Part shown: in pieces, positions 4,239 through 61,001 of the stretch
How the letters are laid out: every line of letters starts with the position of its first letter
How positions within the stretch are numbered: the first letter of the stretch is position 1
NCBI GenBank assembly: GCA_022703645.1
Contig: JAKLDG010000001.1
Location: forward strand, 163,274 to 227,273
Source: Patescibacteria group bacterium
GTDB lineage: Bacteria; Patescibacteriota; JACPGU01
DNA length: 64,000 bases
Direction: 5' to 3'
The notes under the pieces: generated by a model
What the model saw: the letters and a program-made list of their open reading frames with translations, nothing else
What the model was told of the DNA's origin: nothing
The model's database searches: none
Translations under genes and position numbers: made by a program

Positions 4239-4345
4239 TTTTTTTATTGCTTGATATTTATTTTTATGTTAAAATGTAAATGTAATATCAGTAAGACAAT
4301 GCAACAGATTTATCTTGGCGCTCTTACTGAAGGAGCGCATTTTTA

Positions 4346-4450
4346 ATATCCAATATCCAATACTCGAATATCCAATCAATAACCAATAAATTAATATCCA
4401 ATTGGGAATTGAAAATTGATTGAGAATTGGTCATTGAGCATTGAGTATTT
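4346..4450. repeat. AT-rich imperfect palindromic spacer element (caatt/aattg family)
   Basis: left arm of atatccaat-type units and right arm of attgagaattgg-type units around a central ccaattgg. Confidence 0.6.
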
Positions 4451-5115: not shown

Positions 5116-5212
5116 ATTCTCAATTTTCAATTCTCAATTCACATTAAATTTTCAATGATTCAATTATCAAACATTGGAAATTGTAAAATTGTAACATTGA
5201 TTAAAAATTATA
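5110..5212. repeat. AT-rich palindromic spacer element (caatt/aattg family)
   Basis: ctcaattttcaattctcaatt...caatgattcaatt | aaattgtaaaattgtaacattgatt. Confidence 0.6.
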
Positions 5213-7124: not shown

Positions 7125-7412
7125 ATGATTACACCCGAAAGAACATGCGTTATTTGCAGAACAAAAAAACCGAAGAATGAACTTTTCCGTTTTGTGGTTG
7201 ATAAGGGAATCGTTAAGATAGATAAAGGGCAAAAGGAACAAAGCAGAGGTTTTTACATTTGTAGTAAAGAGTGTTGGGATAAATCAGTCAGCAAGAAAAG
7301 AAAGATTAGAATCGGATCGGATGCGAAACGCGCAGTTTCAGTGATTCTACCAGAGAAAACGTTCGAGGAGGTTGTGGAAGATGGGATAAAATTTTCTGCG
7401 ACAAACTTTTAA
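7125..7412 (+). CDS. ylxR: YlxR/DUF448 family RNA-binding protein
   Basis: N-terminal ERTCVICRTKKPKNELFRFV motif and GRGFYIC. Confidence 0.7.
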   Translation: MITPERTCVICRTKKPKNELFRFVVDKGIVKIDKGQKEQSRGFYICSKECWDKSVSKKRKIRIGSDAKRAVSVILPEKTFEEVVEDGIKFSATNF

Positions 7413-7446
7413 AAAAATAAATATTAAATTATGGAGGAATATTAAA

Positions 7447-8097
7447 ATGGACATCCGTTGGCTTGGTCATTCTTGTTTCGAGATAAAAAATAAAAGCATT
7501 TCTATTATTACGGATCCTTATAGTCCGGAGATCGGCTTGAAATTACCAAAATTGAAAGCTAATATTATTACTGTCAGCCACGATCATTATGACCACAATA
7601 ATATTGAGGCGATCGATAGCGCTTATGCTGATAAAAAACCATTTGTGATAGATGGCGATGGAGGATATGAGATTGAAGGAGTTCTTGTTGAAGGGATAAG
7701 AACTTTTCATGACGATAAGGGCGGAACGGAAAGAGGCCCCAACACTGTTTATGACATCAAAATAGATGGTATGACAGTTTGCCATCTCGGAGACCTTGGA
7801 GGGGATCTGACCGAAGAGCAAGTGGAAGAATTGGACGGCGTAGATATACTATTTGTTCCTGTTGGCGGCAAATATACTTTGGACGCAGAAGGAGCAGCAA
7901 AGGTGGTAAATAAAATCGAACCAAGAATTGTTATTCCAATGCATTATCAGATTGACGGATTGAAAATGGATATTGGCAATGCAGACAAATTTATTAAAGA
8001 AATAGGTTTGACTGCTGAAAATCTCGATTCATTGAAAATAGAGAAAAAAGATTTACCCGTGGAAGGAATGAGGCTAATTATTTTAAATAAAGCTTAA
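7447..8097 (+). CDS. MBL-fold metallo-hydrolase
   Basis: HxHxDH motif (SHDHYDH) and later conserved His/Asp residues. Confidence 0.75.
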   Translation: MDIRWLGHSCFEIKNKSISIITDPYSPEIGLKLPKLKANIITVSHDHYDHNNIEAIDSAYADKKPFVIDGDGGYEIEGVLVEGIRTFHDDKGGTERGPNTVYDIKIDGMTVCHLGDLGGDLTEEQVEELDGVDILFVPVGGKYTLDAEGAAKVVNKIEPRIVIPMHYQIDGLKMDIGNADKFIKEIGLTAENLDSLKIEKKDLPVEGMRLIILNKA

Positions 8098-8303: not shown

Positions 8304-8450
8304 TTTGTCTAGGCGACAGTAAGAAAGGTCATCTTCATTTTTTTGGAGATGATTTTTCTTTTGTGCGGGGGTCGAAGGGCGCGAGTAGAATGCGCCTATA
8401 AGAAGCATTCTGTGTGTAGCGCCCAGGCTCCGAGTCGGAGCGAGGAGGAT

Positions 8451-8479
8451 CCCCGCCCGCGGCATTTGTCTAGGCGACA
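8451..8479 (+). repeat. 29-bp exact direct repeat of the tRNA-Leu 3' end plus 15 bp of downstream flank (first copy 8290..8318): att-like duplication
   Basis: ccccgcccgcggcatttgtctaggcgaca occurs twice, 132 bp apart. Confidence 0.8.
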
Positions 8480-8636
8480 TATAAAAACAGCACACTTGTT
8501 TGAGGGTGTTGTTTTTATTTTATATGGGCTTTTTTTCTTTGCCCAAAATTTGCCAAAAATGAAATAAAAATCGCCATTTTTCGTATTAACAGTTATCGAG
8601 TTAATATATCTGTATATTATTTTTTAATTCAATAAA

Positions 8637-10589: not shown

Positions 10590-10668
10590 TTAAAATACAC
10601 AATATTCAATACTTAATATCCAATCAATATCCAATTGGGTATTGGAAATTGGGAATTGGTTATTTTCT
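10590..10668. repeat. AT-rich palindromic spacer element (caatt/aattg family)
   Basis: atatccaatcaatatccaattgggtattggaaattgggaattgg. Confidence 0.6.
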
Positions 10669-12763: not shown

Positions 12764-12920
12764 AATTTTCAATTTTCAATTTTACAATTTCCAATCAATG
12801 TCTCAATGAAAGAATTTTCCAAAAAACACGTATTAATAAAGGTGAAAGAAAGAAATTGATGAAATTAAAAATTAAGAAATTATTTAAAAATTATAAAATT
12901 AAAAATTTTGGAGAAAATTT

Positions 12921-13454: not shown

Positions 13455-13585
13455 AATATTAATAATTTTCAATTTTACAATTTCCAATTCTCAATAAATT
13501 TTCAATGATTCAATTCTCAATTGATAATTGAAAAATTGCGTCATTGATTGAAAATTGATAATTGGTAATTGAGAATTAGCTTGGA
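13455..13585. repeat. AT-rich palindromic spacer element (caatt/aattg family), about 130 nt hairpin
   Basis: aattttcaatgattcaattctcaattg and its reverse complement caattgagaattgaatcattgaaaatt-like right arm. Confidence 0.65.
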
Positions 13586-14530: not shown

Positions 14531-14684
14531 GAGGGAAGAATAAAGAATATAGAATAACGAATTTAGAATAGAATCCGAAATTCCAGATTCCATATTCTAG
14601 ATTCTAAGATATTTTGAAAAAATAAATTTTTCAGTTATAATTAAAGTAATTTATACAAAGTAAAACATTTAGGAAAGGAGAACC

Positions 14685-16136: not shown

Positions 16137-16349
16137 AACGATTTAGGCATACAATTTTTAATTTTTAATTTTTGAATTTTATAAATAAATTACAATGTTT
16201 AAATTTCTAAAATAAAATGATCATATTATTAATTAAAAATTATGATTTAAAGCATTATTTAAAAATTAGAAATTACAAAATTAAAAATTGTATCTTGACC
16301 TGATGTTATATATAATGTTATATTAGATGGGCAAGTAAATAATAAAACA

Positions 16350-17870: not shown

Positions 17871-17917
17871 TATGCTAATTATTTGCCAATTATTACTAAT
17901 TAAATACAAAAATAAAA

Positions 17918-18313
17918 ATGAAACATTTTGTAGATGACTTAATTGAAGGTGACCTTAGTTATAAGATTATTGGATTATGTATGAAGGTGCATTCAGAATT
18001 AGGGAAATCTTATAAAGAGAAATACTATCAGAAAGCTTTAGAAATATCTTTTAAAAAAAATAGTATAAATTTTGTAAGAGAAATTAAGTTTGATTTAGGT
18101 TTTGAGGATGAAAAAATAGGCATGTCATATCTTGATTTTTTAGTTGAAAGTAAGATTGTAGTTGAATTAAAAGTAAAACCATTTATAAATAAAGTTGATA
18201 TAAAACAGGTACTTAGCTATCTAAAAACCACAGATATTAAACTAGGATTGATAATAAATTTTGGTAAAGATAGTTTGGAGTATAAAAGAATATTAAATTC
18301 AAATATAAAATAA
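17918..18313 (+). CDS. GxxExxY family protein (PD-(D/E)XK-like)
   Basis: family-typical layout; inserted between iscS and iscU. Confidence 0.75.
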   Translation: MKHFVDDLIEGDLSYKIIGLCMKVHSELGKSYKEKYYQKALEISFKKNSINFVREIKFDLGFEDEKIGMSYLDFLVESKIVVELKVKPFINKVDIKQVLSYLKTTDIKLGLIINFGKDSLEYKRILNSNIK

Positions 18314-18373
18314 TTGGCGAAAATTAGCGTTAATTCGCATATTAATTCGCGAAAAGAAATTAAGGAGAAAAAT

Positions 18374-18769: not shown

Positions 18770-18890
18770 TTTTTCAATTTTCAAGTATCAATTTTCAATC
18801 AATTTCCAATTATTCAATATTCAATTGTGTATTGTGAAATTGTAACATTTATTGAGAATTGTAAATTGAGAATTGAGAATTTTATTATTA
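18770..18890. repeat. AT-rich palindromic spacer element (caatt/aattg family)
   Basis: ttttcaattttcaagtatcaattttcaatcaatttccaatt ... aattgtaaattgagaattgagaatt. Confidence 0.6.
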
Positions 18891-20179
18891 TGTCAAAAAA
18901 ATCTTTAAATAAAAAACCTAGAGTGGTAGTCGCGATGAGCGGAGGTGTCGACAGCTGCGTCGCTGCTTATTTATTGAAAAAGCAAGGATACGAAGTTATT
19001 GGAGTTTTTTTGAAATTCTGGACACCGCCGGTTTCTGTCTGTGGCACCTCGCGTGAAAATGCATGCTGTGATATGCGAGCGCTTTTGTTGGCCCGCCAAG
19101 TGGCTGGACAATTAGACATACCCTTTTATACTGTTAATGTGTCCAGTTATTTTAAAAAAGAGATAGTGGACAATTTTGTCCATGAATATGAGTCGGGTCG
19201 CACACCGAATCCTTGTGTCAGGTGTAATGAGAAGATAAAATTCGGAGTTCTTTGGAAAAAAGCGAGAGCGCTTGGAGCCGACTATCTCGCGACTGGACAC
19301 TATGTTAGGAAATGTCAAATGTCAAATATCAAATATCAAAAGAAATCAAAAATTAGTCATTTGTCATTTGAAATTGATTCGAAATTTGACATTTGTAATT
19401 TGACATTCAGTCTTATGCGCAGCAAAGACGTTAACAAGGACCAGGCCTATTTCTTAAGCGGTATTGATGCGAGAATAATCCCACACTTGCTGTTTCCTCT
19501 TGGCGATATGGTGAAAAAAGATGTCCGTGAGATTGCAAAAAAAGCCAAACTACCAGTTTATAATAAAAAAGATTCCACCGGAATCTGTTTTATACCTGAT
19601 GGCGATACTTCATCATTTCTTTCTCATTATTCAAATAAACTGAACAAATCAGGTAATATTGTGGATAAAAATGGGAATGTACTTGGAAAACATAAGGGTT
19701 TGATGGGATATACGGTTGGGGAAAAGATTGGAGGAGAAATTTTCAATTTTCAATTTTCAATTTTCAATCAATATTCAATACCCAATATTCAAGATCAAAA
19801 GGATAAAATAAAAAAAGACGTTCCTCGTTTATACGTAATAAGGATTGATGTTAAAAAAAATCGCTTAATCATCGGTGAAAACGAAGATTGTTTTACAGAT
19901 ACGCTGATTGCTGAAGATGTGAATATTATTGGTTCCGATCTTTTTACAAAGAAAACTATTTTAGCTCAAATCAGAGGCGGTCATAAACCCGAACGTTGTC
20001 ATATTGTAGGGGCGGGGATTTCCCCCGCCCGAATTAAAGGGCGACCGCAAGGGTCGCCCCTACGGGTTTCCAAATTAAATATTAAATTTCTCAAACCTGT
20101 TCGCGCTGTAACTCCGGGACAGACTGTGGCTTTTTATGATCTCAAAGGGAAACTTCTTGGCGGGGGAATAATCAAATAA
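18890..20179 (+). CDS. mnmA: tRNA 2-thiouridylase MnmA carrying three in-frame repeat insertions
   Basis: PP-loop VVVAMSGGVDSCV, NPCVRCN, C-terminal conserved region; ATG at 18890; about 60-70 extra residues from the insertions at 19311..19407, 19735..19795 and 20006..20063. Confidence 0.8.
   Translation: MSKKSLNKKPRVVVAMSGGVDSCVAAYLLKKQGYEVIGVFLKFWTPPVSVCGTSRENACCDMRALLLARQVAGQLDIPFYTVNVSSYFKKEIVDNFVHEYESGRTPNPCVRCNEKIKFGVLWKKARALGADYLATGHYVRKCQMSNIKYQKKSKISHLSFEIDSKFDICNLTFSLMRSKDVNKDQAYFLSGIDARIIPHLLFPLGDMVKKDVREIAKKAKLPVYNKKDSTGICFIPDGDTSSFLSHYSNKLNKSGNIVDKNGNVLGKHKGLMGYTVGEKIGGEIFNFQFSIFNQYSIPNIQDQKDKIKKDVPRLYVIRIDVKKNRLIIGENEDCFTDTLIAEDVNIIGSDLFTKKTILAQIRGGHKPERCHIVGAGISPARIKGRPQGSPLRVSKLNIKFLKPVRAVTPGQTVAFYDLKGKLLGGGIIK
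20006..20063. repeat. GC-rich GTAG-headed REP-like palindromic element (58 nt) inserted in frame in mnmA
   Basis: gtaggggcgggg...ccccgccc...gggcgacc-gcaa-gggtcgcccctac; outer GTAGGGGC/GCCCCTAC stem enclosing two internal hairpins. Confidence 0.6.
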
Positions 20180-20263
20180 TTATTGACTTTTTGTTGTATT
20201 ATTTTTTATTTCTATTATTTGAAAATTAATAATTTGCTTACGCAAGCCATAAAAAACGCTATT

Positions 20264-20291
20264 TGACATATCGTTTTTTTTGTATAGAATG
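20264..20291 (+). promoter_or_regulatory. sigma70-like promoter TTGACA-16-TAGAAT in the long leader upstream of the giant surface-protein gene
   Basis: near-consensus -35/-10 hexamers. Confidence 0.4.
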
Positions 20292-20365
20292 TTGTTAGTT
20301 TATCGATTTGGGATCAAACGCTCGCTATACTTTTACAGGTTTGTTCGCGTTTGAAAAAAAGCTGT

Positions 20366-20393
20366 TGACTATGTTTCAAGTAAATATATAATT
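20366..20393 (+). promoter_or_regulatory. sigma70-like promoter TTGACT-16-TATAAT, roughly 500 nt upstream of 20899
   Basis: consensus -10 and near-consensus -35 hexamers. Confidence 0.45.
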
Positions 20394-20898
20394 GAATAGT
20401 AAAGCAGATAAAAATCAATTTATGAAGAAGTAACAAATGCGGTTTTCATGATAGTTTTCGGTTGTTAATTAATTTGTTTGTTTACGGTTTTTTTTACATA
20501 TTTGCACATTAATAATTAGGGTAAATTCACATTCGACAGAAAATTAAAAGTTGTGGAAAAGTCTGAAATTTTTTAAAAAAAAATTTCATCCCGAGCTTGT
20601 CGAGGGATTATTTTTCCAACAGACTTTAAGTCATATTTAATTAATTTATTTTTGTTAGTCGAAACAAAAACAAAAGGTCGAAACCTCAATCGGTATAAAA
20701 ACTTTTTGGGGACTCTTGTTTCACGCGAGTCTTGCAGGGGCTTATCGCATAAGCCCGAAGACAGCAAAATAAATTCTTCTTGCTCGTGAGTAATCACAAG
20801 TTTGAAGAGAAAGTGTTAATAAAAATATAAAATAATATTAAAAAAGAAATCTTAACTCGCAACAATAATTTGCGATTAAGAAAAGGAGGACATACAAA

Positions 20899-24473: not shown

Positions 24474-25049
24474 ATGGAAAACGTACAATCATATAAACAA
24501 AAAAACAAAAAATCAAGAAAACAAATCCGACTCAATGATTACGATTATAGCGAACCAGGGGATTATTTCGTAACGATTTGTACGCAAGATAGAGGGTGTT
24601 TGTTTGGGAAGATTGTAGATGGAGAGATGGTTTTGAATGATTTAGGCGAGATTGTCGAAAATGAAATATCAAATATTCCAAAAAGATTTAAAAATTCAGA
24701 AATCGATATCCATTCCGTTATGCCAAATCACCTGCATTTAATAATTTCAATTTTATGTGATGATGATATTGTAGGGGCAACCCTTGCGGTTGCCTATAAT
24801 AACCGGGCAGGGGCAAGCCCTGCCCCTACAATAGGGGATATCGTCGGTTCGTTTAAATCATTATGTTTTAAAGAATATAAAAAATATGTTGAGAAAAATG
24901 ATTTAAATTTACAAACAAAATTTTGGCAGCGTAATTATTATGAAGAAATAATTAAGAATGAAAGACATTATAATGAGGTGTATAATTATATTTTATCCAA
25001 TCCTTCTAAATGGGAAGAGGATAGAAATAACCCAAATAATATAGTATAA
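24474..25049 (+). CDS. IS200/RAYT-like HUH Y1 transposase (REP-associated tyrosine transposase family)
   Basis: YFVTICTQDRG...FG N-terminal motif; HUH motif PNHLHLII; C-terminal WQRNYYEEIIKNERHYNEVYNYILSNPSKWEED (catalytic Tyr region typical of RAYT/TnpA_IS200-like proteins); carries an internal GC-rich palindrome. Confidence 0.65.
   Translation: MENVQSYKQKNKKSRKQIRLNDYDYSEPGDYFVTICTQDRGCLFGKIVDGEMVLNDLGEIVENEISNIPKRFKNSEIDIHSVMPNHLHLIISILCDDDIVGATLAVAYNNRAGASPAPTIGDIVGSFKSLCFKEYKKYVEKNDLNLQTKFWQRNYYEEIIKNERHYNEVYNYILSNPSKWEEDRNNPNNIV
24771..24829. repeat. GC-rich GTAG-headed REP-like palindromic element (59 nt) inserted in frame inside the RAYT-like gene
   Basis: gtaggggcaacccttgcggttgcc...gggcaggggcaagccctgcccctac; flanked by ttgtagggg/cccctacaa as in the mnmA copy. 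Confidence 0.6.
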
Positions 25050-25767: not shown

Positions 25768-28089
25768 TCAGTAATTCAGAATCTGAATGTCTCTGCGCAT
25801 GGGATCTCCGACTACGATTTTCCGCAGTGTTGGATTAATCGCGAGCGATAGAGGATTGCGGAATTGCAGATCTCCGCCGCCGGGGCTGCCAACGCGCCAT
25901 TTTTGCTGGAAGCTTGTAGCGCCATATGCAATAATTTCCATTGTGCCGGCATCTGAATATACGACGAAATCATATCCGCTTATCTGGACGACTTTAATTG
26001 CCATCGGATATCCGGAATTACTGAGGTCTATATAGTCATTCGTGTTATAGCTGCCGCCTGTTGAAATCTTTGTCAAGCGATGACGTCCAGAATTAGCAAC
26101 CCAGAGATTTGATCCAGATGTATCCAGTGCTATACCGTTGATGTCCGAGAAATAGCCAGCGCCTACTCCTGTCCCGCCAATGGGGTTGTTGCAAGTATAT
26201 CCTGTGGAGTTATAGCTGCAAGGCACTATCTTTGACGTGCTATTATCTACGACATAAAGCATATTCGTGTTGCACGTCAAAGCGTTCGGTGTCGTCAGAT
26301 TGGCATTTGTAATCTTGTACAGATACGTGATGACGTTTCCATTTTCTTTGAAAACGAAGACCCCACCGTCTGCCGAAATCAGAAGCCCATTGTCCGATCC
26401 ACCGAATGAATTACCGCACCACGCTATTCCACTTATAGCGTTAATCGTAGCAGGAAGTCCAGTTACTCCGCCGGGTGTTAACCTTTGTCGTCTGACTTCA
26501 GAGTTGCTGGGTGCATAAACTACGAGCATATTCACACTGTCTGTCGGGTCCTTGCCAGTCGCAAAGATATTTGTCGAACCAATTGTTGAATAACCCATAC
26601 TTGGTACCGGTATGGAAAGCCCGAATGTCGGAGTATTGAATGTCACTCCGCCATCGTTGCCCGTTCCGCCGCCTCCGCCTGTTCCGCCTCCACCACCGCC
26701 ACCGCTTCCGCCGTCGCATGTCGGATCATATTCGATAGGTATTGCTACCTCGTCCGAATCGACATTGTGGGCGTTTCTGGTTTTGTAGTGGAAGGTGTAC
26801 GTGCCGGAATTTGTAAACGAGATGTTGTCGCTGAAATAGCGGTCAGCTGTCGAAGTGCTGTAAATCGGCTTAATCTGCGTGCCGTCTTTGATCAGCGCTT
26901 CATTCTCCTTGAACTTAATCGTCACAGTCGCGAAACCAGTGCAGGTATAGGAGTCCCAATAGGAAATATACGGTCTGGTCGGCGGAGTATTATTGAGGTT
27001 GAAAAGAACCCTCAAAACGTCGCCGGGCTGTCCGCCCAGCTTGGCGTAGAATTGAATAATCTTATCGCCGTTGGGTTGACCCGAGAAATCCACATTGGTA
27101 CTCCAGTAAGTAGTCGCTCCGGAGCTGAATGTCGCGATGCGCGTCTCGTCATTTGACCACGGCAGTTTCATCCAGATAGAATCAACGCCGCCGGGGGCAT
27201 AACCTTCGAAGACAAAAGAGGTAGCATAGGGTGACTTGGTGATCAAGACGTCGTATGTCGGATCCGAAGTGTTTTCCCACGCTGTGTCCGCATTCGATGA
27301 ATAGGTGATCAGCCACGGTTTTGAAACGTGCGCTGTGCCGACTTTCCAGACTTTGACGTCCTTGCACTCGGTATTTCCCGAAATACTTCCGCTTGTCGTG
27401 GATTTGATCGGTGTTACGCATACCCTGTAAGTTGCCGACGAACCTGAGATGCTCGCATTGGTGTACTGGTATCCCATATTTGTCTGACAGTCATAGGTTT
27501 GCGCGTAGCCGTTGCCCCATGAAACTGAACATAGCGATCCGAGATCTTCCGGCCGGCTAATTACTGTCGTGACGGTTACTACGTCTCCCGCGTTAGCTTC
27601 CGGAGGTGTCAGTTTTGTGTCTGAAATCTGCGGAGCGGATGGGATGACTGCTGTAGGCGCCTCCCTCACATATACCCGAATTGAGTTTGTGATCGGTTTG
27701 GAACCGTTGGTAGCTGTCACTGACAGGTTGTAATACGAGACTGAAGCGCTGTATTTATAGCGCACCTGAAACGTATTTACAGTTGCGTTGTCGCAAGTTG
27801 CATTGTTGACCGTGGAAGTTGAAGTGCCATCTCCCGGGTTCAAAACCAGCGTATTTGCATTCGCGCAGTACGCCATTACCGTGATGAGTGTTCCTTCGTC
27901 CACTGTCATTTCTGTTGCATTGGTTGGTGTCGGTGAGATTGCCCAACGTAATCCTGACAGATTATTTGTGTCGATTATGGTTCCGCCGCCTCCACCACCA
28001 TTGCAACCGGACATGGTGACGAGTATTGGCACCGCAAATATCAGCGCCAATGCGAGATAAATAAAGCGAAACTTTCGTGTCATTCTCAT
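25768..28089 (-). CDS. secreted lipoprotein-like NHL-repeat beta-propeller protein with Ig/PKD-like N-terminal domains and Gly-rich linkers; GC-rich relative to its surroundings
   Basis: start at 28089 chosen because it is preceded by RBS AAGGAGGT, giving signal peptide MRMTRKFRFIYLALALIFAVPILVTMSGC (lipobox-like); C-terminal NHL-type repeats (LWVANSGRHRLTKI; IVVGDPMRRDIQILNY); poly-Gly linker GGSGGGGGGGTGGGGG. Confidence 0.6.
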   Translation of the reverse strand: MRMTRKFRFIYLALALIFAVPILVTMSGCNGGGGGGTIIDTNNLSGLRWAISPTPTNATEMTVDEGTLITVMAYCANANTLVLNPGDGTSTSTVNNATCDNATVNTFQVRYKYSASVSYYNLSVTATNGSKPITNSIRVYVREAPTAVIPSAPQISDTKLTPPEANAGDVVTVTTVISRPEDLGSLCSVSWGNGYAQTYDCQTNMGYQYTNASISGSSATYRVCVTPIKSTTSGSISGNTECKDVKVWKVGTAHVSKPWLITYSSNADTAWENTSDPTYDVLITKSPYATSFVFEGYAPGGVDSIWMKLPWSNDETRIATFSSGATTYWSTNVDFSGQPNGDKIIQFYAKLGGQPGDVLRVLFNLNNTPPTRPYISYWDSYTCTGFATVTIKFKENEALIKDGTQIKPIYSTSTADRYFSDNISFTNSGTYTFHYKTRNAHNVDSDEVAIPIEYDPTCDGGSGGGGGGGTGGGGGTGNDGGVTFNTPTFGLSIPVPSMGYSTIGSTNIFATGKDPTDSVNMLVVYAPSNSEVRRQRLTPGGVTGLPATINAISGIAWCGNSFGGSDNGLLISADGGVFVFKENGNVITYLYKITNANLTTPNALTCNTNMLYVVDNSTSKIVPCSYNSTGYTCNNPIGGTGVGAGYFSDINGIALDTSGSNLWVANSGRHRLTKISTGGSYNTNDYIDLSNSGYPMAIKVVQISGYDFVVYSDAGTMEIIAYGATSFQQKWRVGSPGGGDLQFRNPLSLAINPTLRKIVVGDPMRRDIQILNY

Positions 28090-28453
28090 TACTGAATTAC
28101 CTCCTTCATGGGGTTTGATTGAAGGTTTAGTGCGCCGGAGCGCTCTATAACCATTTGACACGGTATTTATATAGACCCTTCTTCAGGGGTGCGCTAAGTT
28201 GAACAGAGAAATATTTGTTTTTATTTGTTTCTCTGTTATTAAGTTACAATAAGCGAAACAAGAGGAGTTTTTATGCCTCTATAATTATAATCCGCTTAGT
28301 TAACTCAAATTTAGCATAAAAACAGGATGTAGTCAAGGGTTTGTTGGCGAAATAAGCCAAATTTGGTAAATAAGAAAAAACAGCTTTAAAAATATAGATA
28401 AATATTAAAAAATATTATGTTAAAATATTAAAGAAATATTATTAATATAATAG

Positions 28454-28837
28454 ATGCAAGAAAAGAACTATGTTGCATTGAAAGATCTTATAATTTATCG
28501 TTTGTCGATAGACCTTTGTAATTATTGCTGGGATATTTACATTAGTTTTGACTGGGATACAAAGAAGATAGAAGGGCATCAATTTATCAGGTCAATAGAC
28601 TCAATTGGTGCTAATATCGCCGAAGGATATGGTAGATTCCATTTTCTAGATAGGATAAAATTCTATTATAACGCCAGAGGATCGTTACTCGAGTCAAAAC
28701 ATTGGGTTTTGTTACTAAAAAATAGAAATAAAATTAGTGTAGATGATTTTGATATTCTTATCAGCAAACTAAATAAATTAAATTATCAGTTAAACTTATA
28801 CATTGCTTCTTGTCACGAAACCAGAGACAATATTTAA
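28454..28837 (+). CDS. four-helix-bundle protein (23S rRNA intervening-sequence protein family)
   Basis: FIRSIDSIGANIAEGYGR ... ARGSLLESKHWV signature. Confidence 0.8.
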   Translation: MQEKNYVALKDLIIYRLSIDLCNYCWDIYISFDWDTKKIEGHQFIRSIDSIGANIAEGYGRFHFLDRIKFYYNARGSLLESKHWVLLLKNRNKISVDDFDILISKLNKLNYQLNLYIASCHETRDNI

Positions 28838-28940
28838 TATTTTATAATATTTTGAAATATTTTATTAATATTATCAACAAACTCTTTAATTTTTCGCGAC
28901 TTTCTGTTAAAATTTAACTATTAGAAATAACTAACCGTTT

Positions 28941-34905: not shown

Positions 34906-34909
34906 AAAA

Positions 34910-34995
34910 TTTTCAATGGATCAATTATCCAAATTCAAGAATTGCAGAATTGTATCATTGATTGAAAATTGAGAACTGAAAATTGAAAATTTCTT
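34910..34995. repeat. AT-rich palindromic spacer element (caatt/aattg family)
   Basis: ttttcaatggatcaattatcc ... attgattgaaaattgagaactgaaaattgaaaatt. Confidence 0.6.
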
Positions 34996-35879: not shown

Positions 35880-36000
35880 AATTATTTTAATTCTCAATTC
35901 TCAATTAACAATTCTCAATAAATTTTCAATGAATCAATTACCAATAATTGCAAAATTGTGTCATTGATTGAAAATTGAAAAATGGAAATTGAAAATTATA
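35880..36000. repeat. AT-rich palindromic spacer element (caatt/aattg family)
   Basis: ttctcaattctcaattaacaattctcaataaattttcaatgaatcaatt ... aattgtgtcattgattgaaaattgaaaaatggaaattgaaaatt. Confidence 0.6.
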
Positions 36001-37425: not shown

Positions 37426-37502
37426 GATAAAATTTTTAATTTTTAATTTTTGAATTTTTAAATAAATTCTAATTTTTAAACAAAAAATAAATGATATATG
37501 AT

Positions 37503-37850
37503 CTAGAAGAAAGAGTTTCCCTATTCGGACAAAAAATAATTGTATTTTGTCGGCTTTTTGAGAAAAATGAGATAACAAGACCATTAATATCATAGTAAGT
37601 CAGATCAGCAACCAGCATAGGCGCAAACTATATGGAGGCTAATCAAGCAAGTTCAAAAAAAGATTTTAAAAATAAGATAAGAATTTGCCAGAAAGAAGCT
37701 AACGAAACAAAGCATTGGTTAAGAATGTTGTCTTACTCAACAGATAGTAATAAATATGGATGTCGGATTCTATGGAAATAGGCACATGAATTGACATTGA
37801 TATTTGCAAAAATTTCAAAAAGTTGTGATTCAGATAATTAATAATTTAGA
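37503..37850 (+). pseudogene. pseudogene of a four-helix-bundle (23S rRNA IVS) protein interrupted by in-frame stops
   Basis: manual translation gives DLEERVSLFGQKIIVFCRLFEKNEITRPLIS**VRSATSIGANYMEANQASSKKDFKNKIRICQKEANETKHWLRMLSYS...LWK*AHELTLIFAKI: family-typical SIGANY.EA...SKKDF.NKI.IC.KEA.ET..WLRM with TAG/TAA stops. Confidence 0.55.
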
Positions 37851-38206
37851 TTTAAAAAATTATTTAAAAATTAAAAATTATAAAATTAAAAATTCTATGT
37901 CAAATTTTAAATTTGACATAGAATTCATATCGTGCTATAAATTATACACAAAATCAATTATATTAAGTCATATCAATATCCCTTTTAATACAGAAGTATA
38001 ACAATGAGGGGTGTTTTCTTTTTTTCGATTTTTAAGGGTTTTCCGCAGAAAACTGTGGATAAGTATTAAGTAAAATTTTAAATCAAGAAAAAATTTATAC
38101 CAAATTTTATAGTAGAATTTTTTCTTAAAAGGAGAAATTTCACGAAAAGTGGAGAGAATAAAATCTAATGATTTTTTTCTCGAAAGTGAAAGTGAAATTT
38201 GGACGC

Positions 38207-38671: not shown

Positions 38672-38702
38672 GGTGAAGGGTTTAGGGTATAGGGTATAGT
38701 AG

Positions 38703-38729
38703 GGGCGAGCCGTTGGCTCGCCCATTTTT
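38703..38729 (+). terminator. rho-independent terminator of greA (gggcgagcc-gtt-ggctcgccc plus T-run), preceded by GTAG like the REP-like elements
   Basis: 9-bp GC stem plus ATTTTT. Confidence 0.7.
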
Positions 38730-46356: not shown

Positions 46357-47829
46357 ATGGCTAATTTAAATAATCTTACAATTAGTAAAGCTTCTGAACT
46401 TCTTGAAAAAAAAGAAGTTAGTTCGGTTGAATTGACAAATTATTATCTTGAAAGGATTGAAAAGCTCAATCCAGAGCTGGGAGCATATTTAAGTACTGAG
46501 AAAGAATATGCGCTAAAAAAGGCTAGGGAAAGTGATGAGAGAATTAAATCTGGAAAAAGAATCGGAATTCTTGACGGGATTCCTTGTTCGGTAAAAGATG
46601 TTATTACTACAAAGGATATAGAGACAACCGCAGCCAGCAAAATTCTAGAAGGCTATATCGCCCCGTATAGCGCAACTGTTGTTCGCAAGATCGAGGAGCA
46701 GGGAGCAGTGATTCTTGGTAAAAATAATTGTGATGAGTTTGCGATGGGATCTTCTACTGAAAATTCAGCTTATATGTTAGCAAAAAATCCTTGGGATTTA
46801 TCCCGTGTGCCTGGTGGTTCTTCCGGCGGGTCAGCAGTAGCAGTTGCAGCCGATTTATGCGTATTTTCTTTTGGCACCGAGACAGGGGGATCAATCCGCC
46901 AGCCGGCGTCTCTTTGCTCTGTTGTGGGGCTGAAACCAACATATGGAAGAAATTCACGCTATGGTTCTATTGCTTACGGATCATCGCTCGATCAGATAGG
47001 GGTATTTGGGAAGTGTGTTGAGGACATTTCATCTGTAATGCATGTTATTGCGGGTAAAGATTCTTTAGATTCTACAACAGTAGAATATCCAATATTCAAT
47101 ATCCAATATCCAATCAATACTCAATATCCAATGAAAGATTTAAAAATCGGTATACCAAAGGAATATTTTGGCGAAGGATTGGATAGCGAAGTTGAGAAAA
47201 TCGTTCGTGATGCGATTGACAAATATAAAGAAATGGGAGCTGAAATCATTGATATTTCACTCCCAAACACTGAATATGCAACTCCTTGCTACTATTTATT
47301 ATCAATGGCAGAGGCCAGCAGTAATCTGGCTCGTTATGATGGTATTAAGTATGGTAAATCTGAAACTGACAACGCAAAAGACTTAATTGATGTTTATTTT
47401 AAAACGCGTGGTAAGTATTTTGGGGATGAACAAAAAAGAAAGTCAATTCTGGGAACATTTGAGCTATCAGCTGGATATTATGATGCCTATTACCGCAAAG
47501 CACAGAAAGCTAGATCTTTGGTAAAAAAAGATTTTGATGATGCATTTGAAAAAATCGACTGTATTATGTGTCCTGTTTCTCCTTTTCCAGCATTCAAAAT
47601 CGGAGAGAAGAAAGACGACCCGCTTTCAATGTATCTGGCGGATATTTTTACAATCTCAGCAAATCTTGCGGGAATTTGCGCTCTTTCTATACCAGCAGGA
47701 TTTACGCAAAATAATTTACCGGTTGGCTTACAGATCATGGGTCCAAGATTTGATGAGGATAAGATTCTTCAAATAGCCAAAGCATATGAAGAAATGACGC
47801 AGTGGCATACTATGTTTCCAAGCATCTGA
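46357..47829 (+). CDS. gatA: Asp/Glu-tRNA amidotransferase subunit A (amidase)
   Basis: amidase signature GGSSGGSAVAVAA, catalytic Ser/Lys context; contains in-frame AT-rich repeat insertion encoding YPIFNIQYPINTQYPM (47083..47132). Confidence 0.9.
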   Translation: MANLNNLTISKASELLEKKEVSSVELTNYYLERIEKLNPELGAYLSTEKEYALKKARESDERIKSGKRIGILDGIPCSVKDVITTKDIETTAASKILEGYIAPYSATVVRKIEEQGAVILGKNNCDEFAMGSSTENSAYMLAKNPWDLSRVPGGSSGGSAVAVAADLCVFSFGTETGGSIRQPASLCSVVGLKPTYGRNSRYGSIAYGSSLDQIGVFGKCVEDISSVMHVIAGKDSLDSTTVEYPIFNIQYPINTQYPMKDLKIGIPKEYFGEGLDSEVEKIVRDAIDKYKEMGAEIIDISLPNTEYATPCYYLLSMAEASSNLARYDGIKYGKSETDNAKDLIDVYFKTRGKYFGDEQKRKSILGTFELSAGYYDAYYRKAQKARSLVKKDFDDAFEKIDCIMCPVSPFPAFKIGEKKDDPLSMYLADIFTISANLAGICALSIPAGFTQNNLPVGLQIMGPRFDEDKILQIAKAYEEMTQWHTMFPSI

Positions 47830-54175: not shown

Positions 54176-55126
54176 ATGAAAAATATTTGGAAAGAACTAT
54201 CGAAAGATAAAAAACCTTTTGTTGCGTTAGCGCCTATGGCTGGTGTGACCGATTTTCCATTTCGGGAGATAATTGCGGAAATAGGAAAGCCTGATGTGAT
54301 GTTTACGGAATTCGTTTCTACAGAACATATCGCAAGGGTTTCTGAAACGCCTTTGGTTTTGAAATTTTCAAAAAAGCAGCGACCGATTATCGCGCAATTT
54401 TTTGGTTCAAAGCCGGAACAGTTTGAAAAATGCGCGCAATTAGCATTAAAATTAGGATTTGATGGGATAGATATCAATATGGGCTGCCCTGATCGCAAGG
54501 TTCTAAAACAAGGCGCGGGATCGGAACTTATAAAAAATTCAGAGTTAGCGGTCGAGATTATCCGCACGGTAAAAAAAGTTGTCGACGGTAAAATCCCTGT
54601 TTCGGTCAAAACGAGGATAGGATGGGACGAAAAAAATATTTCAAAATATTTGGAAATATTAAAAAATATTGTTGCCACGGAAAATATCAGTGCGATAACA
54701 ATTCATGGGAGAACTGCAAAACAAGGGTATTCTGGCAATGCAGACTGGGAGACTATCGGAAAATTTACAAAAGAATTGAAAAAAGTAAATAAAAATTTAA
54801 TCGTGATTGGGAATGGTGACATCAAAAATTTGGCGCAAGGAAAAATGTTAGTTGATAAATACGACCTTGATGGATTTATGATTGGTCGCCAAATTCTCAA
54901 AAATCCTTGGGTATTCAGTAGCGGCAGAAAATTTTCTGCCCCTACGATACGAAAAAGGTTAAAAATCGCCCTGAAGCATACGGAACTTTTTCAAAAATTC
55001 TATGGCGAGAAGGCTTCATTTGGCGCAATGAAAAAATACTATAAAGCATATCTATCCGGTTTTGAAATCAAAAAAGATTTGATGAATGCGAAGAATTTTG
55101 AAGAAGCGAAGAAGATTTTAAAATAA
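54176..55126 (+). CDS. dus: tRNA-dihydrouridine synthase (Dus family)
   Basis: LAPMAGVTDFPFREI, DINMGCPDRKV, TIHGRT motifs; carries an in-frame 28-nt REP-like insertion encoding GRKFSAP. Confidence 0.85.
   Translation: MKNIWKELSKDKKPFVALAPMAGVTDFPFREIIAEIGKPDVMFTEFVSTEHIARVSETPLVLKFSKKQRPIIAQFFGSKPEQFEKCAQLALKLGFDGIDINMGCPDRKVLKQGAGSELIKNSELAVEIIRTVKKVVDGKIPVSVKTRIGWDEKNISKYLEILKNIVATENISAITIHGRTAKQGYSGNADWETIGKFTKELKKVNKNLIVIGNGDIKNLAQGKMLVDKYDLDGFMIGRQILKNPWVFSSGRKFSAPTIRKRLKIALKHTELFQKFYGEKASFGAMKKYYKAYLSGFEIKKDLMNAKNFEEAKKILK
54917..54944. repeat. 28-nt GTAG-headed palindromic REP-like element inserted in frame in dus
   Basis: gtagcggcagaaaattttctgcccctac; 27/28 identical to the copy in prmC. 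Confidence 0.6.
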
Positions 55127-55127
55127 T

Positions 55128-55240
55128 TTTCAATTTTACAATTTCCAATTTTCAATCAATTTTTCAATGATTCAATTTTTGATATAATTGCAAAGCAATA
55201 CCTAAATTGGAAACTGAAAACTGAAAATTGAAAATTTCCC
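55128..55240. repeat. AT-rich palindromic spacer element (caatt/aattg family)
   Basis: ttttcaattttacaatttccaattttcaatcaatttttcaatgattcaatt ... aaattggaaactgaaaactgaaaattgaaaatt. Confidence 0.6.
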
Positions 55241-57972: not shown

Positions 57973-58056
57973 ATTTAGGAAAAAGAATCTAGAATCTAGA
58001 ATTTGGAATTTTGAATAATAATTCTGAATCAAATCTAGATTCTAAATTAAATTTAT

Positions 58057-60146: not shown

Positions 60147-61001
60147 TTAAATTTCAACGATAACGACGCGGTCTTTTTTTGCGAGGTCTTTTTTTATATC
60201 AACCACAGCATTTGGGAAAAACTTTTTTGCGATCTTGATGATTTTATTTTTTTGGCTCGGATTGATCTCGAGAAACAAAGAGAGACTATCCCATTTTCTT
60301 TCTTTTATCTGGCTAAATAGTTTCTCGTAGATTTCCAAGCCTTCTTTGCCGCCGTAGAGCGCCAGACGAGGCTCTTTGGTAATGCTTGGCTCTTGCAACT
60401 CATCATGCGTGAGATAAGGCAAATTAGCGACGATGATATCAGGTTTAGATTTGATGTTTTGTAATAGATCTGATTTTTTGAATCGGATATTGGATATTGG
60501 GTATTGGGTATTTCGAAGGTTGTATCTAGCAACCTTCAGCGCTTTCTCTGAAATGTCTACCGCTGTTATTTTCGTTTTTGGCAAGTATTTTGCGAGAGTT
60601 AAAGCTATACAACCCGAACCGGTACCGATTTCAAGGATTCTGGTAGGGGCAGAAAATTTTCTGCCCCTACAATAGTTGATAACGTTTTCAACGATCAACT
60701 CGGTTTCAGGACGGGGAACGAGAACATCCTCATTTACATAAAAATCAATCCCATAGAACTCTTTTTTACCTACAATGTACGCGATAGGGTAGTTTTTTTT
60801 GCGTTTGGAAATCAATTTTTTGTATTTATTGAATTGGGCATTGGTCATTGGGTATTGGGTATTTGAAATTAGTTTTTCTAAATTACACCCCAATAAAAAA
60901 CTAATAAGTATTTCCGCATCTAACCTGGCAGAAGGGATACTTGACATTCTTAATTCATTTGTTCCATACTTTAGCGCTTTATCTACGGAAATAATTGACA
61001 T
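60147..61001 (-). CDS. prmC: release factor glutamine N5-methyltransferase PrmC/HemK with in-frame repeat insertions
   Basis: motif I ILEIGTGSGCIALTLA, VLVPRPETE, catalytic IVANLPYL (NPPY-like); peptide repeats QYPMTNAQF / QYPISNIRF come from AT-rich repeat copies; CRGRKFSAPT comes from the 28-nt REP-like element. Confidence 0.8.
   Translation of the reverse strand: MSIISVDKALKYGTNELRMSSIPSARLDAEILISFLLGCNLEKLISNTQYPMTNAQFNKYKKLISKRKKNYPIAYIVGKKEFYGIDFYVNEDVLVPRPETELIVENVINYCRGRKFSAPTRILEIGTGSGCIALTLAKYLPKTKITAVDISEKALKVARYNLRNTQYPISNIRFKKSDLLQNIKSKPDIIVANLPYLTHDELQEPSITKEPRLALYGGKEGLEIYEKLFSQIKERKWDSLSLFLEINPSQKNKIIKIAKKFFPNAVVDIKKDLAKKDRVVIVEI
60643..60670. repeat. 28-nt perfect palindrome GTAGGGGCAGAAAATTTTCTGCCCCTAC (REP-like) inserted in frame in prmC
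   Basis: 14+14 self-complementary; near-identical to 54917..54944. Confidence 0.65.

Follow-up and report, generated by a model that had tools for sequence, protein, structure and literature searches.

The AT-rich hairpin at 13455-13585 raises the question of what the repeats of this kind are that recur throughout the 64-kb stretch of DNA analyzed here (the window), and of how they came to lie between, and in places inside, the genes of a Patescibacteria metagenome-assembled genome (MAG). The answer that we favor, at a probability of roughly 0.7, is that they are MITE-like remnants devoid of a gene, derived by deletion from a palindromic selfish element of the 23S rRNA intervening sequence (IVS) type. 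The full element would consist of a left array of 7-nt units, an IVP/S23p gene of about 120 codons (PF05635, TIGR02436), and a right array of reverse-complement units, with the ATG of the gene falling within the inner left arm and its TGA at the mirrored place on the right. Loss of the gene would join the arms at about CAATTG and leave an imperfect hairpin of 80 to 160 nt. The S23p/IVP gene encodes a four-helix-bundle protein and was first known from intervening sequences of 23S rRNA.

A search of the window with the pattern (N3-4 CAAT)x3 or (ATTG N3-4)x3 found 23 CAAT/ATTG heptamer arrays, against a mean of 0.21 and a maximum of 3 in 100 dinucleotide-preserving shuffles. Sorted by period, the tandem arrays of the window numbered 34 at 7 nt, 1 at 6 nt, and 7 at 8 nt. 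All of the coordinates that an earlier reading, made from the letters alone (the sequence-only reading), had listed for the family do hold the repeats that it described, nine of them imperfect palindromes of 80 to 160 nt in spacers (Table 1). Its statement that they fill most intergenic spacers was too strong; of the 58 spacers of at least 30 nt, 9 or 10 contain the family, and strong 7-nt periodicity is seen in 14. The central CCAATTGG that it had called frequent occurs in only two of the nine copies, and CAATTG in four. For what it took to be a half-copy (12764-12815), a degenerate right arm was located at about 12853-12919, and 12764-12919 is therefore a whole element filling its spacer. 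A separate, GC-rich GTAGGGGC palindrome family is also present in the window.

Table 1. Repeat elements, gene-bearing elements, and in-gene arrays in the window (z, folding z score relative to shuffles)
Coordinates	Strand	Feature	Evidence
4346..4450	.	Gene-less element, TATCCAA/TTGGNNA subtype, in the spacer between tRNA-Phe and a UbiE-type methyltransferase gene	Weak hairpin, z -1.67
5116..5212 (copy 5110)	.	Gene-less element immediately 3' of a methyltransferase stop codon	Degenerate, z -0.93
10590..10668	.	Gene-less element, TATCCAA subtype, in the spacer between YknX-type and ABC-ATPase genes of one operon	z -3.74
12764..12919	.	Whole element filling the MacB/DUF5666 spacer	Inverted repeat and fold
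13455..13585	.	Flagged copy, gene-less palindrome, TTTTCAA/TTGAAAA type	Fold -32.9 kcal/mol, z -4.19, 0/200 shuffles as good
14536..14615	.	Sister palindrome, AGAATA/ATTCTA units	
16149..16293	.	Gene-less element, AATTTTT/AAAAATT units	z -3.86
18770..18889	.	Gene-less element filling the NifU/MnmA spacer	z -6.65
19310..19407	+	Complete in-frame palindrome in mnmA, other unit type (AAATGTC/GACATTT)	Inverted repeat, z -2.97
19738..19792	+	Left-arm array in mnmA: TTTTCAA x4, TCAA, further units	In frame; 50/57 identity to 18770 left arm
28388..28875	+	Intact IVP gene (28454-28837) between inverted AATATT-type arrays, units of ~10-12 nt	PF05635 76 bits, TIGR02436 72 bits
34373..34484	.	Sister palindrome, AATATCT units	Inverted repeat, z -2.31
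34906..34995	.	Gene-less element in the convergent spacer between RuvX and an Fe-hydrogenase-like gene	Degenerate, z -0.62
35880..36000	.	Gene-less element on the opposite side of the Fe-hydrogenase-like gene	z -2.50; aligns to L148 left end and L196 right end
37426..37898	+	Decayed gene-bearing element	TIGR02436 52.5 bits vs cutoff 24
47083..47132	+	Left-arm array in gatA, encodes EYPIFNIQYPINTQYPM: TATCCAA x4, TCAA, 2 more units	In frame
55125..55240	.	Gene-less element immediately 3' of the Dus stop codon	z -3.25; DNA matches in 39 metagenome loci
57985..58050	.	Sister palindrome, GAATCTA/TAGATTC units	z -4.23, 0/200 shuffles as good; arms' best match is each other
60470..60525	-	Left-arm array in prmC, TACCCAA/TATCCAA units in the sense strand, encodes NTQYPISNIRF	In frame
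60826..60872	-	Second left-arm array in prmC, encodes NTQYPMTNAQF	In frame

The copies form a true dispersed repeat family with modular arms, as had been proposed, and are not low-complexity sequence: they have nonperiodic stretches in common and a fixed layout in which three to five heptamers are followed by a 4-nt stutter and then by a core. A 23-nt sequence, TTTTCAATTTTACAATTTCCAAT, was recognized by eye in three copies. The number of units varies among copies, but the unit types of the two arms always match within one element, and the arms covary across 20 elements. In the element at 12764-12919, which has DNA matches in 27 metagenome loci, a TTTTCAA left arm is paired with a degenerate AAAAATT-type right arm. 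The window, like other Patescibacteria, contains many unrelated unit types. Folding of the copies as RNA, proposed earlier as a check, confirmed a hairpin in 8 of 12 elements, for each of which no more than 1 in 200 shuffles did equally well (z down to -6.7), and gave weak structures for the degenerate copies 4346, 5110, and 34906, which fold no better than shuffles (z of -0.6 to -1.7).

Such arrays could also arise in place, with no transfer between sites, if AT-rich microsatellites underwent replication slippage and hairpin-templated repair, and this would accommodate the varying unit numbers, the multiplicity of unit types, and the presence of different arrays by lineage in the same loop of gatA (see below). 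It is contradicted for the CAAT and AATTTTT types by the nonperiodic sequence and the fixed stutter and core layout that the copies have in common, by whole elements that are 80 to 83% identical in organisms without other DNA similarity, and by the homology between the core and the IVP gene ends. Slippage could hold for some of the minor unit types, but as an account of the family we regard it as highly unlikely.

The parent element, in which an IVP gene is nested between the two arms, was missed by the earlier reading. At 37426-37898, a left arm of (AATTTTT)n (37431-37461) and a right arm of (AAAAATT)n (37838-37894), complementary at 33/36, enclose a stop-interrupted IVP pseudogene at about 37495-37781 (MIYDLEER...), the C-terminal half of which lies at 37599-37778. 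The whole is 69% identical over 523 columns (E of 2e-49) to an intact element at 7396-7915 of the metagenome locus L185. The flanks of IVP genes were compared with those of control genes by a composition-neutral alignment score, which replaced RNA duplex energy; the duplex energy did not separate the two groups because GC-richer coding flanks dominate the energy. All seven complete IVP genes from the window and the CPR loci, the assignment of which to the IVP family was confirmed, have inverted-repeat flanks, with scores of 14.5 to 34 (20.5 for 28388-28875), whereas the flanks of 93 control genes had a mean score of 9.8 (standard deviation, 3.9; Mann-Whitney p = 1.3e-5).

The ends of the gene can be recognized in the short copies. 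The core TTTTCAATGAWTCAATT reads M-N/I-Q-L/F-S-N-N-YDLEERT in the metagenome loci L148, L156, and L169, and in L196 the IVP stop lies in the mirror sequence AATTGAATCATTGA. The element at 13455-13585 has, in order, left heptamers, a core with ATG (AAATTTTCAATGATTCAATT), a CAATTG center, a right core with TGA (TCATTGATTGAAAATTG), and right heptamers. Its left half matches the left arm and first codons of the L148 IVP element at 52/60, and its right half corresponds, at about 49/60, to the closing codons of the gene in L196 together with the stop and the right arm; the flagged short copies retain only the first ~5 and the last ~3 IVP codons. The element at 16149-16293 aligned to the two ends of 37426-37898 with scores of 49.5 and 48 (shuffle mean, 21.7; maximum, 31.5) and is, as judged from this similarity, a deletion derivative of an element like it. 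Both termini are thus those of a larger gene-bearing element, as in MITEs, for 16149-16293 and, by comparison with L148 and L196, for 13455-13585. No intact IVP gene of the TTTTCAA type is present in the ~79 kb that was read of this genome of at least 533 kb, and other metagenomes are therefore the only source from which a parent for the flagged subfamily is known. The similarity of the AATATT-type palindromes to the flanks of the intact IVP gene was not above shuffle level.

It might be argued that the copies are ordinary MITEs or REPIN-like sequences moved in trans by an insertion sequence transposase or by a RAYT/IS200-type HUH enzyme, with the IVP gene as an occasional passenger. They are indeed small, palindromic, multicopy, intergenic, and polymorphic for presence or absence, and the DNA inspected amounts to ~79 kb of at least 533 kb. 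A second small gene, that of a PD-(D/E)XK GxxExxY protein at 17918-18313, likewise lies between inverted repeats, and such palindromes can therefore carry different cargo. Yet the domain records for the called genes in the window and its flanks include no transposase or integrase, none of ten window proteins scanned directly against Pfam has a transposase domain, and no RAYT gene was found in the ~79 kb read of the genome of at least 533 kb; the association with a transposase for which the sequence-only reading suggested a search came out negative in the window and flanks, the only partner gene being IVP. The arms also lack the form of REP sequences (20- to 40-nt units with a GTAG head, in inverted pairs), and no target-site duplication is visible at five filled versus empty spacers, where divergence of the relatives prevents the junctions from being placed exactly. 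The start and stop of IVP are built into the arms across many genomes and phyla, which fits a coevolved unit better than a passenger. Mobilization in trans seems to us a poor explanation and quite improbable. IVP itself has no known recombinase identity, a mobility enzyme and a defined target were not found, and IVP had no matches among the PADLOC defense-system models.

The family had been called genome specific, which proved wrong: at least 32 copies with the same architecture occur in other metagenomes, and several are 80 to 83% identical over ~120 nt, as 13455-13585 is to L174, L109, L204, L151, and L118. The pattern scan of metagenomes listed 115 distinct matches, of which 83 are chance occurrences in AT-rich DNA and 32 pass a strict periodicity filter; the window's own genome is not among the matches listed. 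When 118 metagenome loci were compared with the window by blastn, the elements alone matched, in 13 intervals, so that the same elements are found in organisms that have no other DNA in common with the window. Relatives of the L169-type IVP number 4768, and the best 120 cluster representatives are 74 to 99% identical, while the housekeeping proteins GatA and MnmA are only 58 to 64% identical to their nearest relatives. The contigs bearing IVP relatives are in many cases shorter than 3 kb.

A scan of species-representative genomes found no close relatives (the best GatA match was 58% identical), and syntenic relatives, L090 and L091, were reached via MnmA homologs. Five orthologous spacers are 3 to 22 nt long in these relatives and 111 to 157 nt long in the window, and in one of the five filled spacers the ancestral 16 nt are kept beside the start codon. 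The spacer orthologous to 5116-5212 has 22 nt in L090, and that orthologous to 10590-10668 has 13 nt in L091; the counterpart of 18770-18889 has 8 nt in L090, whereas in L091 it is an element of 114 nt built from a different unit type. The copies therefore behave as inserted, MITE-like selfish DNA, as was originally suggested, given these short spacers and the copies in unrelated organisms that share nothing else. They occupy tiny spacers of compact operons, often immediately 3' of a stop codon. Public copies of this genome, whether at JGI, NCBI, or Logan, are all 100% identical to the window; no recent movement was seen, and these copies are therefore uninformative on that point.

The same facts could be read as those of host cis-acting parts of gene expression kept by selection, such as bidirectional terminators or attenuators, intercistronic stems that process or stabilize mRNA, or operator arrays bound by the IVP protein, rather than of selfish DNA. 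Consistent with this, the elements are nearly exclusively intergenic and often start right at a stop codon, most form long hairpins with covarying arms, and full-length copies are 80 to 83% conserved where the other DNA of the organisms fails to align. The orthologous operons of the relatives, however, function with spacers of 3 to 22 nt, and fragments of the elements lie inside genes. Neither promoter-like matches (62 versus 53.7 ± 6.9 in shuffles) nor terminator-like matches (15 versus 11.5 ± 3.5) are enriched, and no Rfam family matched at the gathering threshold or at E ≤ 0.01. GC-rich terminators of the ordinary kind are present elsewhere in the genome. The sense strand has no folding advantage over the antisense strand (more stable in only 7 of 23; p = 0.08) and several copies are degenerate and fold no better than shuffles; thus, nothing points to selection on the sense transcript. 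We consider a host function of this kind unlikely.

That units of the family occur in frame inside gatA, prmC, and mnmA was borne out, in the form of arm fragments at the positions first reported. The in-gene arrays (gatA, the two in prmC, and mnmA 19738-19792) align to intergenic left arms with scores of 20.5 to 39.5 (null mean, 10.2; 99th percentile, 17), and the 4-nt stutter TCAA is common to them; the gatA array alone scored 32.5 against the left arm of 4346. An invasion of coding sequences by simple insertion, as the sequence-only reading had it, fails for gatA and prmC, where length is hardly changed. The gatA array lies in a variable linker of 22 amino acids against an ortholog median of 20, and the prmC arrays add 2 (60470-60525) and 1 (60826-60872) amino acids relative to T. 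maritima HemK. Since these arrays are not net insertions, they are not readily explained by simple insertion plus deletion. The gatA site holds different 7- to 8-nt arrays in other Patescibacteria; the site is common, and its sequence is neither native nor conserved. In mnmA, the alignment places the insertion site of 19738-19792 in common with a CPR3-like clade, and the palindrome at 19310-19407 has relatives in L164 (86% over 59 nt) and L192. The first mnmA open reading frame begins inside an element, at 18827.

Rickettsia palindromic elements (RPE) are palindromic repeats that are tolerated in frame inside conserved genes. The likeness to RPE that had been suggested applies only to the mnmA palindrome at 19310-19407, which is whole, in frame, and a net insertion, and does not extend to the other copies: most in-gene copies are single arms, and in gatA and prmC loop sequence was replaced with a gain of only 1 to 2 amino acids. 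RPE have no sequence relationship to the elements described here.

Among known systems, the elements most invite comparison with the 23S rRNA IVS of Leptospira, Coxiella burnetii, and others, in which a PF05635/TIGR02436 gene lies in the loop of a terminal inverted-repeat stem. Here such a gene lies between repeats at 28388-28875, where it is intact, and at 37426-37898, as a pseudogene, and flank complementarity and hairpin folds indicate terminal repeats suited to a stem of ~20 to 28 bp or more. The Coxiella IVS has a 28-bp inverted-repeat stem that is cut by RNase III and two to three tandem heptamers immediately upstream of the S23p gene, the number of which differs among strains; the IVS has been under suspicion of being a mobile element since 1993 (PMC4990558). 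Tandem heptamers stand beside the gene start here too, and the Coxiella stem of ~28 bp corresponds to four heptamers. In contrast to the 23S IVS, the elements lie between or inside protein-coding genes and not in helix 25 or 45 of 23S rRNA (no rRNA is present in the window), most copies are gene-less, and their arms are longer arrays. By analogy with the RNase III cleavage demonstrated for the 23S rRNA IVS, the arms may pair in the transcript to form a cleavable stem of ~28 bp or more, which would explain the tolerance of insertions between cotranscribed genes.

In being short, palindromic, noncoding, multicopy, and intergenic, and in deriving from or depending on a larger gene-bearing element, the copies resemble MITEs and REPINs, families of which are, as here, homogeneous in sequence within a genome (PMC3116915). 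They differ from these in that the parent encodes a four-helix-bundle protein and not a DDE or HUH transposase, in that no target-site duplication was seen, and in that their arms are AT-rich 7-nt tandem arrays rather than a unique terminal inverted repeat or a GTAG-headed REP.

The dispersed tandem heptanucleotides also recall the short tandemly repeated repetitive sequences (STRR) of cyanobacteria, the unit sequences of which were reportedly given by Mazel et al. in 1990. STRR and the heptamer direct repeats of Beggiatoaceae, Bacteroidetes, and Microcystis are mostly intergenic, are of many unit types, and are occasionally in frame in genes, with their origin and spread unexplained (PMC4679880). 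Unlike STRR, the arrays described here belong to a Patescibacteria MAG and have TTTTCAA, TATCCAA, and other units, and they are paired and inverted, whereas STRR have been described as direct tandem repeats. On plasmids of Nostoc, Dolichospermum, Planktothrix, Gloeocapsa, and Euhalothece, heptamer arrays in inverted orientation bracket IVP genes, as in Nostoc punctiforme, where (AATTCGC)x4 and (GCGAATT)x4 surround the gene; no other array of period 7 occurs over 50 kb of that plasmid's sequence. Inverted short tandem arrays bracket ~13 of 16 sampled plasmid IVP genes of cyanobacterial, Chloroflexota, spirochete, and firmicute origin, and on a Dolichospermum plasmid ten arrays of the same unit are clustered in and around a helicase-IVP-methyltransferase operon. 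The literature consulted, mostly without subscription journals, described no link of IVP genes to heptamer arrays or to paired inverted arrays outside rRNA.

A broader and rather doubtful possibility is that IVP genes in inverted arrays constitute a pan-bacterial mobile class, that the heptamers of STRR, Beggiatoaceae, Bacteroidetes, and CPR are its arms and remnants, and that the element, perhaps via its Avd-like protein with a polymerase or reverse transcriptase, actively writes arm-type arrays into DNA in its vicinity, protein surface loops among them. The replacement of loops in gatA and prmC at nearly constant length, the lineage-specific arrays in the same gatA loop, and the ten clustered arrays on the Dolichospermum plasmid would all fit such writing. 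Avd, which assists diversity-generating retroelements, acts on a structured RNA together with a reverse transcriptase and is considered related to the four-helix-bundle proteins of the S23p/IVP family. The mode of action of IVP may be hinted at by this parallel; in the window itself, neither a reverse transcriptase nor a template or variable repeat was found.

Since the early 1990s, the small IVS protein has lacked a known function; short tandem heptamers, on record from cyanobacteria since 1990 and afterward from further phyla, have lacked a known origin and means of spread. If the favored reading is true, the protein gene and the heptamers belong to a single selfish element, the latter as its arms, and two old loose ends may merge; heptamer binding by the protein, removal from messages by RNase III, and the relation of gene copy number to repeat load would become testable. 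For the compact genomes of CPR bacteria, the filler of a sizeable share of the noncoding DNA would be identified, as would the agent that remodels loops of the essential enzymes GatA, MnmA, and PrmC and probably also of UvrC and RF1. The elements also have practical consequences, as they break assemblies, which the short contigs of many IVP relatives reflect, and can mislead gene callers into long false N-terminal extensions, such as that of mnmA.

The repeats of the window were assessed by their layout, and this layout identifies them as a family rather than simple sequence. In every interval that the sequence-only reading had assigned to it, a left run of NNNCAAT units faces a right run of ATTGNNN units. 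A regular-expression search of the window found 23 arrays of at least three units, against 0.21 in dinucleotide shuffles; by period, 34 arrays fell at 7 nt, 7 at 8 nt, and 1 at 6 nt. From left to right, each element consists of three to five heptamers, a 4-nt stutter (TCAA or TAAA), the core AAATTTTCAATGAWTCAATT, a center near CAATTG, the mirror core TCATTGATTGAAAATTG, and the right heptamers, and by eye 23 identical nonperiodic bases are common to three copies. Unit number varies between copies, and the two arms of an element covary by unit type. Most copies form long imperfect hairpins that are rarely matched by shuffles (three copies are degenerate). The first description was therefore correct as an observation, but "most spacers" was an overstatement, since the family occupies 9 to 10 of the 58 spacers of at least 30 nt (strong 7-nt periodicity in 14 of 58), and the central CCAATTGG occurs in only two of nine copies. 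The 79 kb of this genome covered by the analysis added three intergenic copies and further arrays at positions within the called uvrC and prfA.

Two syntenic relatives, L090 and L091, were reached via MnmA homologs, and they have minimal spacers where the window has elements: methyltransferase/orf135 (112 nt versus 22 nt in L090), NifU/MnmA (120 versus 8 nt in L090), orf135/S1 (157 versus 21 nt in L090, with the last 16 nt before the start codon conserved), YknX/ABC (111 versus 13 nt in L091), and ABC/MacB (149 versus 3 nt in L091). Presence and absence at orthologous sites show that the elements are inserted DNA; no target duplication was seen at the compared spacers. The elements of L091 follow this layout too, but are built of a different unit (CAAATTA) and occupy partly different spacers. 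A single TTTCAAT-type copy is present in L090, and a small GC-rich hairpin is nested at its center. GC-rich hairpins of ~17 to 45 nt are also nested mid-array or mid-palindrome at three gatA loci (L015, L024, and L020), and these, with that of L090, resemble the small dispersed repeats described inside Nostoc heptamer repeats.

The origin of the short elements is suggested by copies that carry a gene. At three metagenome loci (L148, L156, and L169), the core continues directly into a gene beginning M-N/I-Q-L/F-S-N-N-YDLEERT, with the ATG within the core, and at a fourth (L196) the gene ends within the mirror core (AAT TGA ATC ATT GA). The encoded product is a 23S-rRNA-intervening-sequence four-helix-bundle protein (IVP; PF05635, 56 to 85 bits; TIGR02436, 52 to 79 bits with a cutoff of 24), which also matches PDB 2RLD. 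The flanks were complementary for 7/7 complete IVP genes from the window and candidate phyla radiation (CPR) loci, well above 93 control genes (P = 1.3e-5). In alignment, the flagged element is accounted for by ~62 nt from the left end and ~60 nt from the right end of a gene-bearing element. The window itself holds a decayed gene-bearing element, which aligns to the intact element of L185 over 523 columns (E = 2e-49); a short palindrome aligns with each end of this decayed element, the ATG included. These alignments indicate that the short elements are gene-less derivatives of an IVP-bearing parent. The window has another IVP gene, which is intact and flanked by inverted AATATT-type arrays; a link between these arrays and the remaining AATATT palindromes of the window is statistically insecure. 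The proposal of selfish MITE-like DNA broadly stands, although it missed the gene-bearing parent. The recorded annotations of the window and its flanks include no transposase, integrase, or reverse transcriptase.

Nor are the elements genome specific, as had been claimed. A metagenome scan with the core pattern recovered, amid many chance matches, at least 32 same-layout copies from many projects (17 short palindromes, 3 copies with a gene, 11 with just the left arm, and 1 truncated by the end of its contig). The flagged element is 80 to 83% identical over ~120 nt to copies in L174, L109, L204, L151, and L118. When 118 fetched contigs were compared with the window by blastn, only elements matched, at 13 intervals, and the hosts are therefore different organisms sharing these elements alone. 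The window sequence itself recurs at 100% identity in GCA_035454225.1 (contig DAOTEO010000001.1, 533 kb), JGI 3300009776 and 3300025715, and a Logan assembly. Its source is a Patescibacteria (CPR) metagenome-assembled genome with CPR3-like nearest relatives; its GatA is at most 58% identical to that of any species representative, and its MnmA is 55 to 64% identical to the best homologs.

The left arms also align, down to the stutter, with arrays inside gatA, prmC, and mnmA, and the scores clearly exceed a coding-sequence null. Those of mnmA occupy three loop sites at which extra sequence varies across the CPR3-like clade, whose MnmA proteins have 372 to 509 aa versus the canonical 358 to 366 aa. 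The linker that holds the gatA array has an ordinary length (22 aa versus a median of 20), and the two prmC arrays add only 1 to 2 aa relative to Thermotoga maritima HemK. At the gatA position, nine other Patescibacteria have different 7- to 8-nt arrays or palindromes, and in two of the nine GC-rich inserts are nested in the array. These loops are therefore shared hot spots with fast turnover, and isolated single insertions do not account for them. Candidate routes are patch conversion, insertion balanced by deletion, and an active process that writes arrays. The longest mnmA open reading frame, used in one public gene call, starts at a GTG inside an element, and so elements create false N-terminal extensions.

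Coordinates of the features discussed (window numbering unless a locus is named)
Position	Strand	Feature	Details
4267-4340		Upstream of methyltransferase gene	TAATATCAGTAAGACA ... GCGCTCTTACTG; terminator-like GC hairpin 4318-4338
8304-8636		GC-rich spacer 3' of tRNA-Leu	333 nt; -115.6 kcal/mol; bounded by 15-nt direct repeat TTTGTCTAGGCGACA at 8304 and 8465
13455-13585		Flagged short element
16149-16293		Short palindrome matching decayed element
17918-18313		GxxExxY gene	Region 17871-18373
18827-18889		mnmA extension inside element	GTG at 18827; most likely real start ATG at 18890
20004-20090, 24767-24833, 54925-54950, 60643-60670, 38699-38725, 11775		GC-rich palindromes	GTAGGGGC...GCCCCTAC frame
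20180-20898		Noncoding segment upstream of 1,149-aa ORF	719 nt
25768-28089	-	773-aa gene	~50% GC
28454-28837		Intact IVP gene
37426-37898		Decayed gene-bearing element
L090 7880-8010		TTTCAAT-type copy with nested hairpin
L229 22262-28655		Ten arrays of Dolichospermum pAfl69	6.4 kb

Other features of the window were noted alongside. Nearly all genes lie on the plus strand, GC is ~37%, and GC skew is positive throughout. IscS and NifU, which are adjacent in L090 and L091, are separated in the window by the insertion of a PD-(D/E)XK "GxxExxY" gene (TIGR04256, 113 bits; PF13366). Inverted repeats of ~11-nt units (TCGCTAATTAATATGCTAATTA/complement) bracket this gene, and IVP is thus not the only kind of small gene housed in a palindrome of tandem units. 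The separate GC-rich palindromes look REP-like; they occur in frame inside mnmA (GAGISPARIKGRPQGSPLRV), orf191, dus, and prmC (CRGRKFSAPTR), and one lies 3' of greA, preceded by ATAGGGT heptamers. The 773-aa gene, with a glycine run and a GC content above the genome's 37%, has no recorded Pfam match and may be of foreign origin. The strongly structured tRNA-Leu spacer and the 719-nt segment have no Rfam match. In the corresponding position, L090 and L091 have spacers comparable in length to the 719-nt segment (660 and 553 nt) that contain recognizably similar stretches; the 719-nt segment may represent an unknown RNA or else a long leader. The sequence preceding the methyltransferase gene is clearly represented in L090 as well, and it may be a small RNA or a conserved leader.

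Beyond the CPR, a tblastn search of plasmids with a CPR IVP returned 31 records, of which 16 were Nostoc; the others include filamentous cyanobacteria, Bernardetia, Chlorohelix, Treponema, and Monoglobus. Inverted short tandem arrays hug the IVP gene in ~13 of 16 loci inspected: (AATTCGC)x4 ... (GCGAATT)x4 in N. punctiforme, (TAATTCG)x4 ... (TTACGAA)x4 in Dolichospermum, (AATTCAA)x4 ... (TTTTGAA)x4 in N. flagelliforme, and (ATTTTAG)x2 ... (CTAAAAT)x2 in Gloeocapsa; in Euhalothece, 14 TGGTCAC units run downstream. A 50-kb portion of the N. punctiforme plasmid has only two period-7 arrays, those flanking the IVP gene; a 50-kb portion of the Dolichospermum plasmid has 14, of which 10 have the IVP-arm unit. 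Those ten (AATTACG/TAATTCG) cluster in and around a helicase-IVP-methyltransferase operon. Several of them fall within genes annotated as intact (helicase-related, hypothetical, and DNA methyltransferase), which parallels the in-gene arrays of the window. The architecture of an IVP gene between arrays is general. The plasmid IVP genes (L212, L215, L216, L219, L221, L222, and L223) often lie between defense-operon genes: cas2/cas1 in two Nostocales, hsdS/hsdR in Monoglobus, drmD/pglX in Planktothrix, and helicase/methylase in Chlorohelix; in Pseudanabaena the gene adjoins cas1. IVP proteins had no PADLOC match.

The closest known relative of these elements is the intervening sequence (IVS) of 23S rRNA. 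The Coxiella IVS has the same ingredients, namely an S23p gene, an inverted-repeat stem of 28 bp that RNase III cuts, and two to three tandem heptamers, strain variable in number, before the start codon, and the IVS was long ago proposed to be a mobile element (PMC4990558). Unlike that IVS, the elements described here lie in mRNA spacers and gene loops, and the gene is mostly lost. The literature searched, with incomplete coverage, yielded no description of IVP genes between arrays outside rRNA or of gene-less derivatives. Sense strands showed no folding advantage over antisense strands, and some of the copies have decayed. By analogy with rRNA, the arms would pair in the transcript into a long stem that RNase III could cut, and such cutting would make insertion between cotranscribed genes tolerable.
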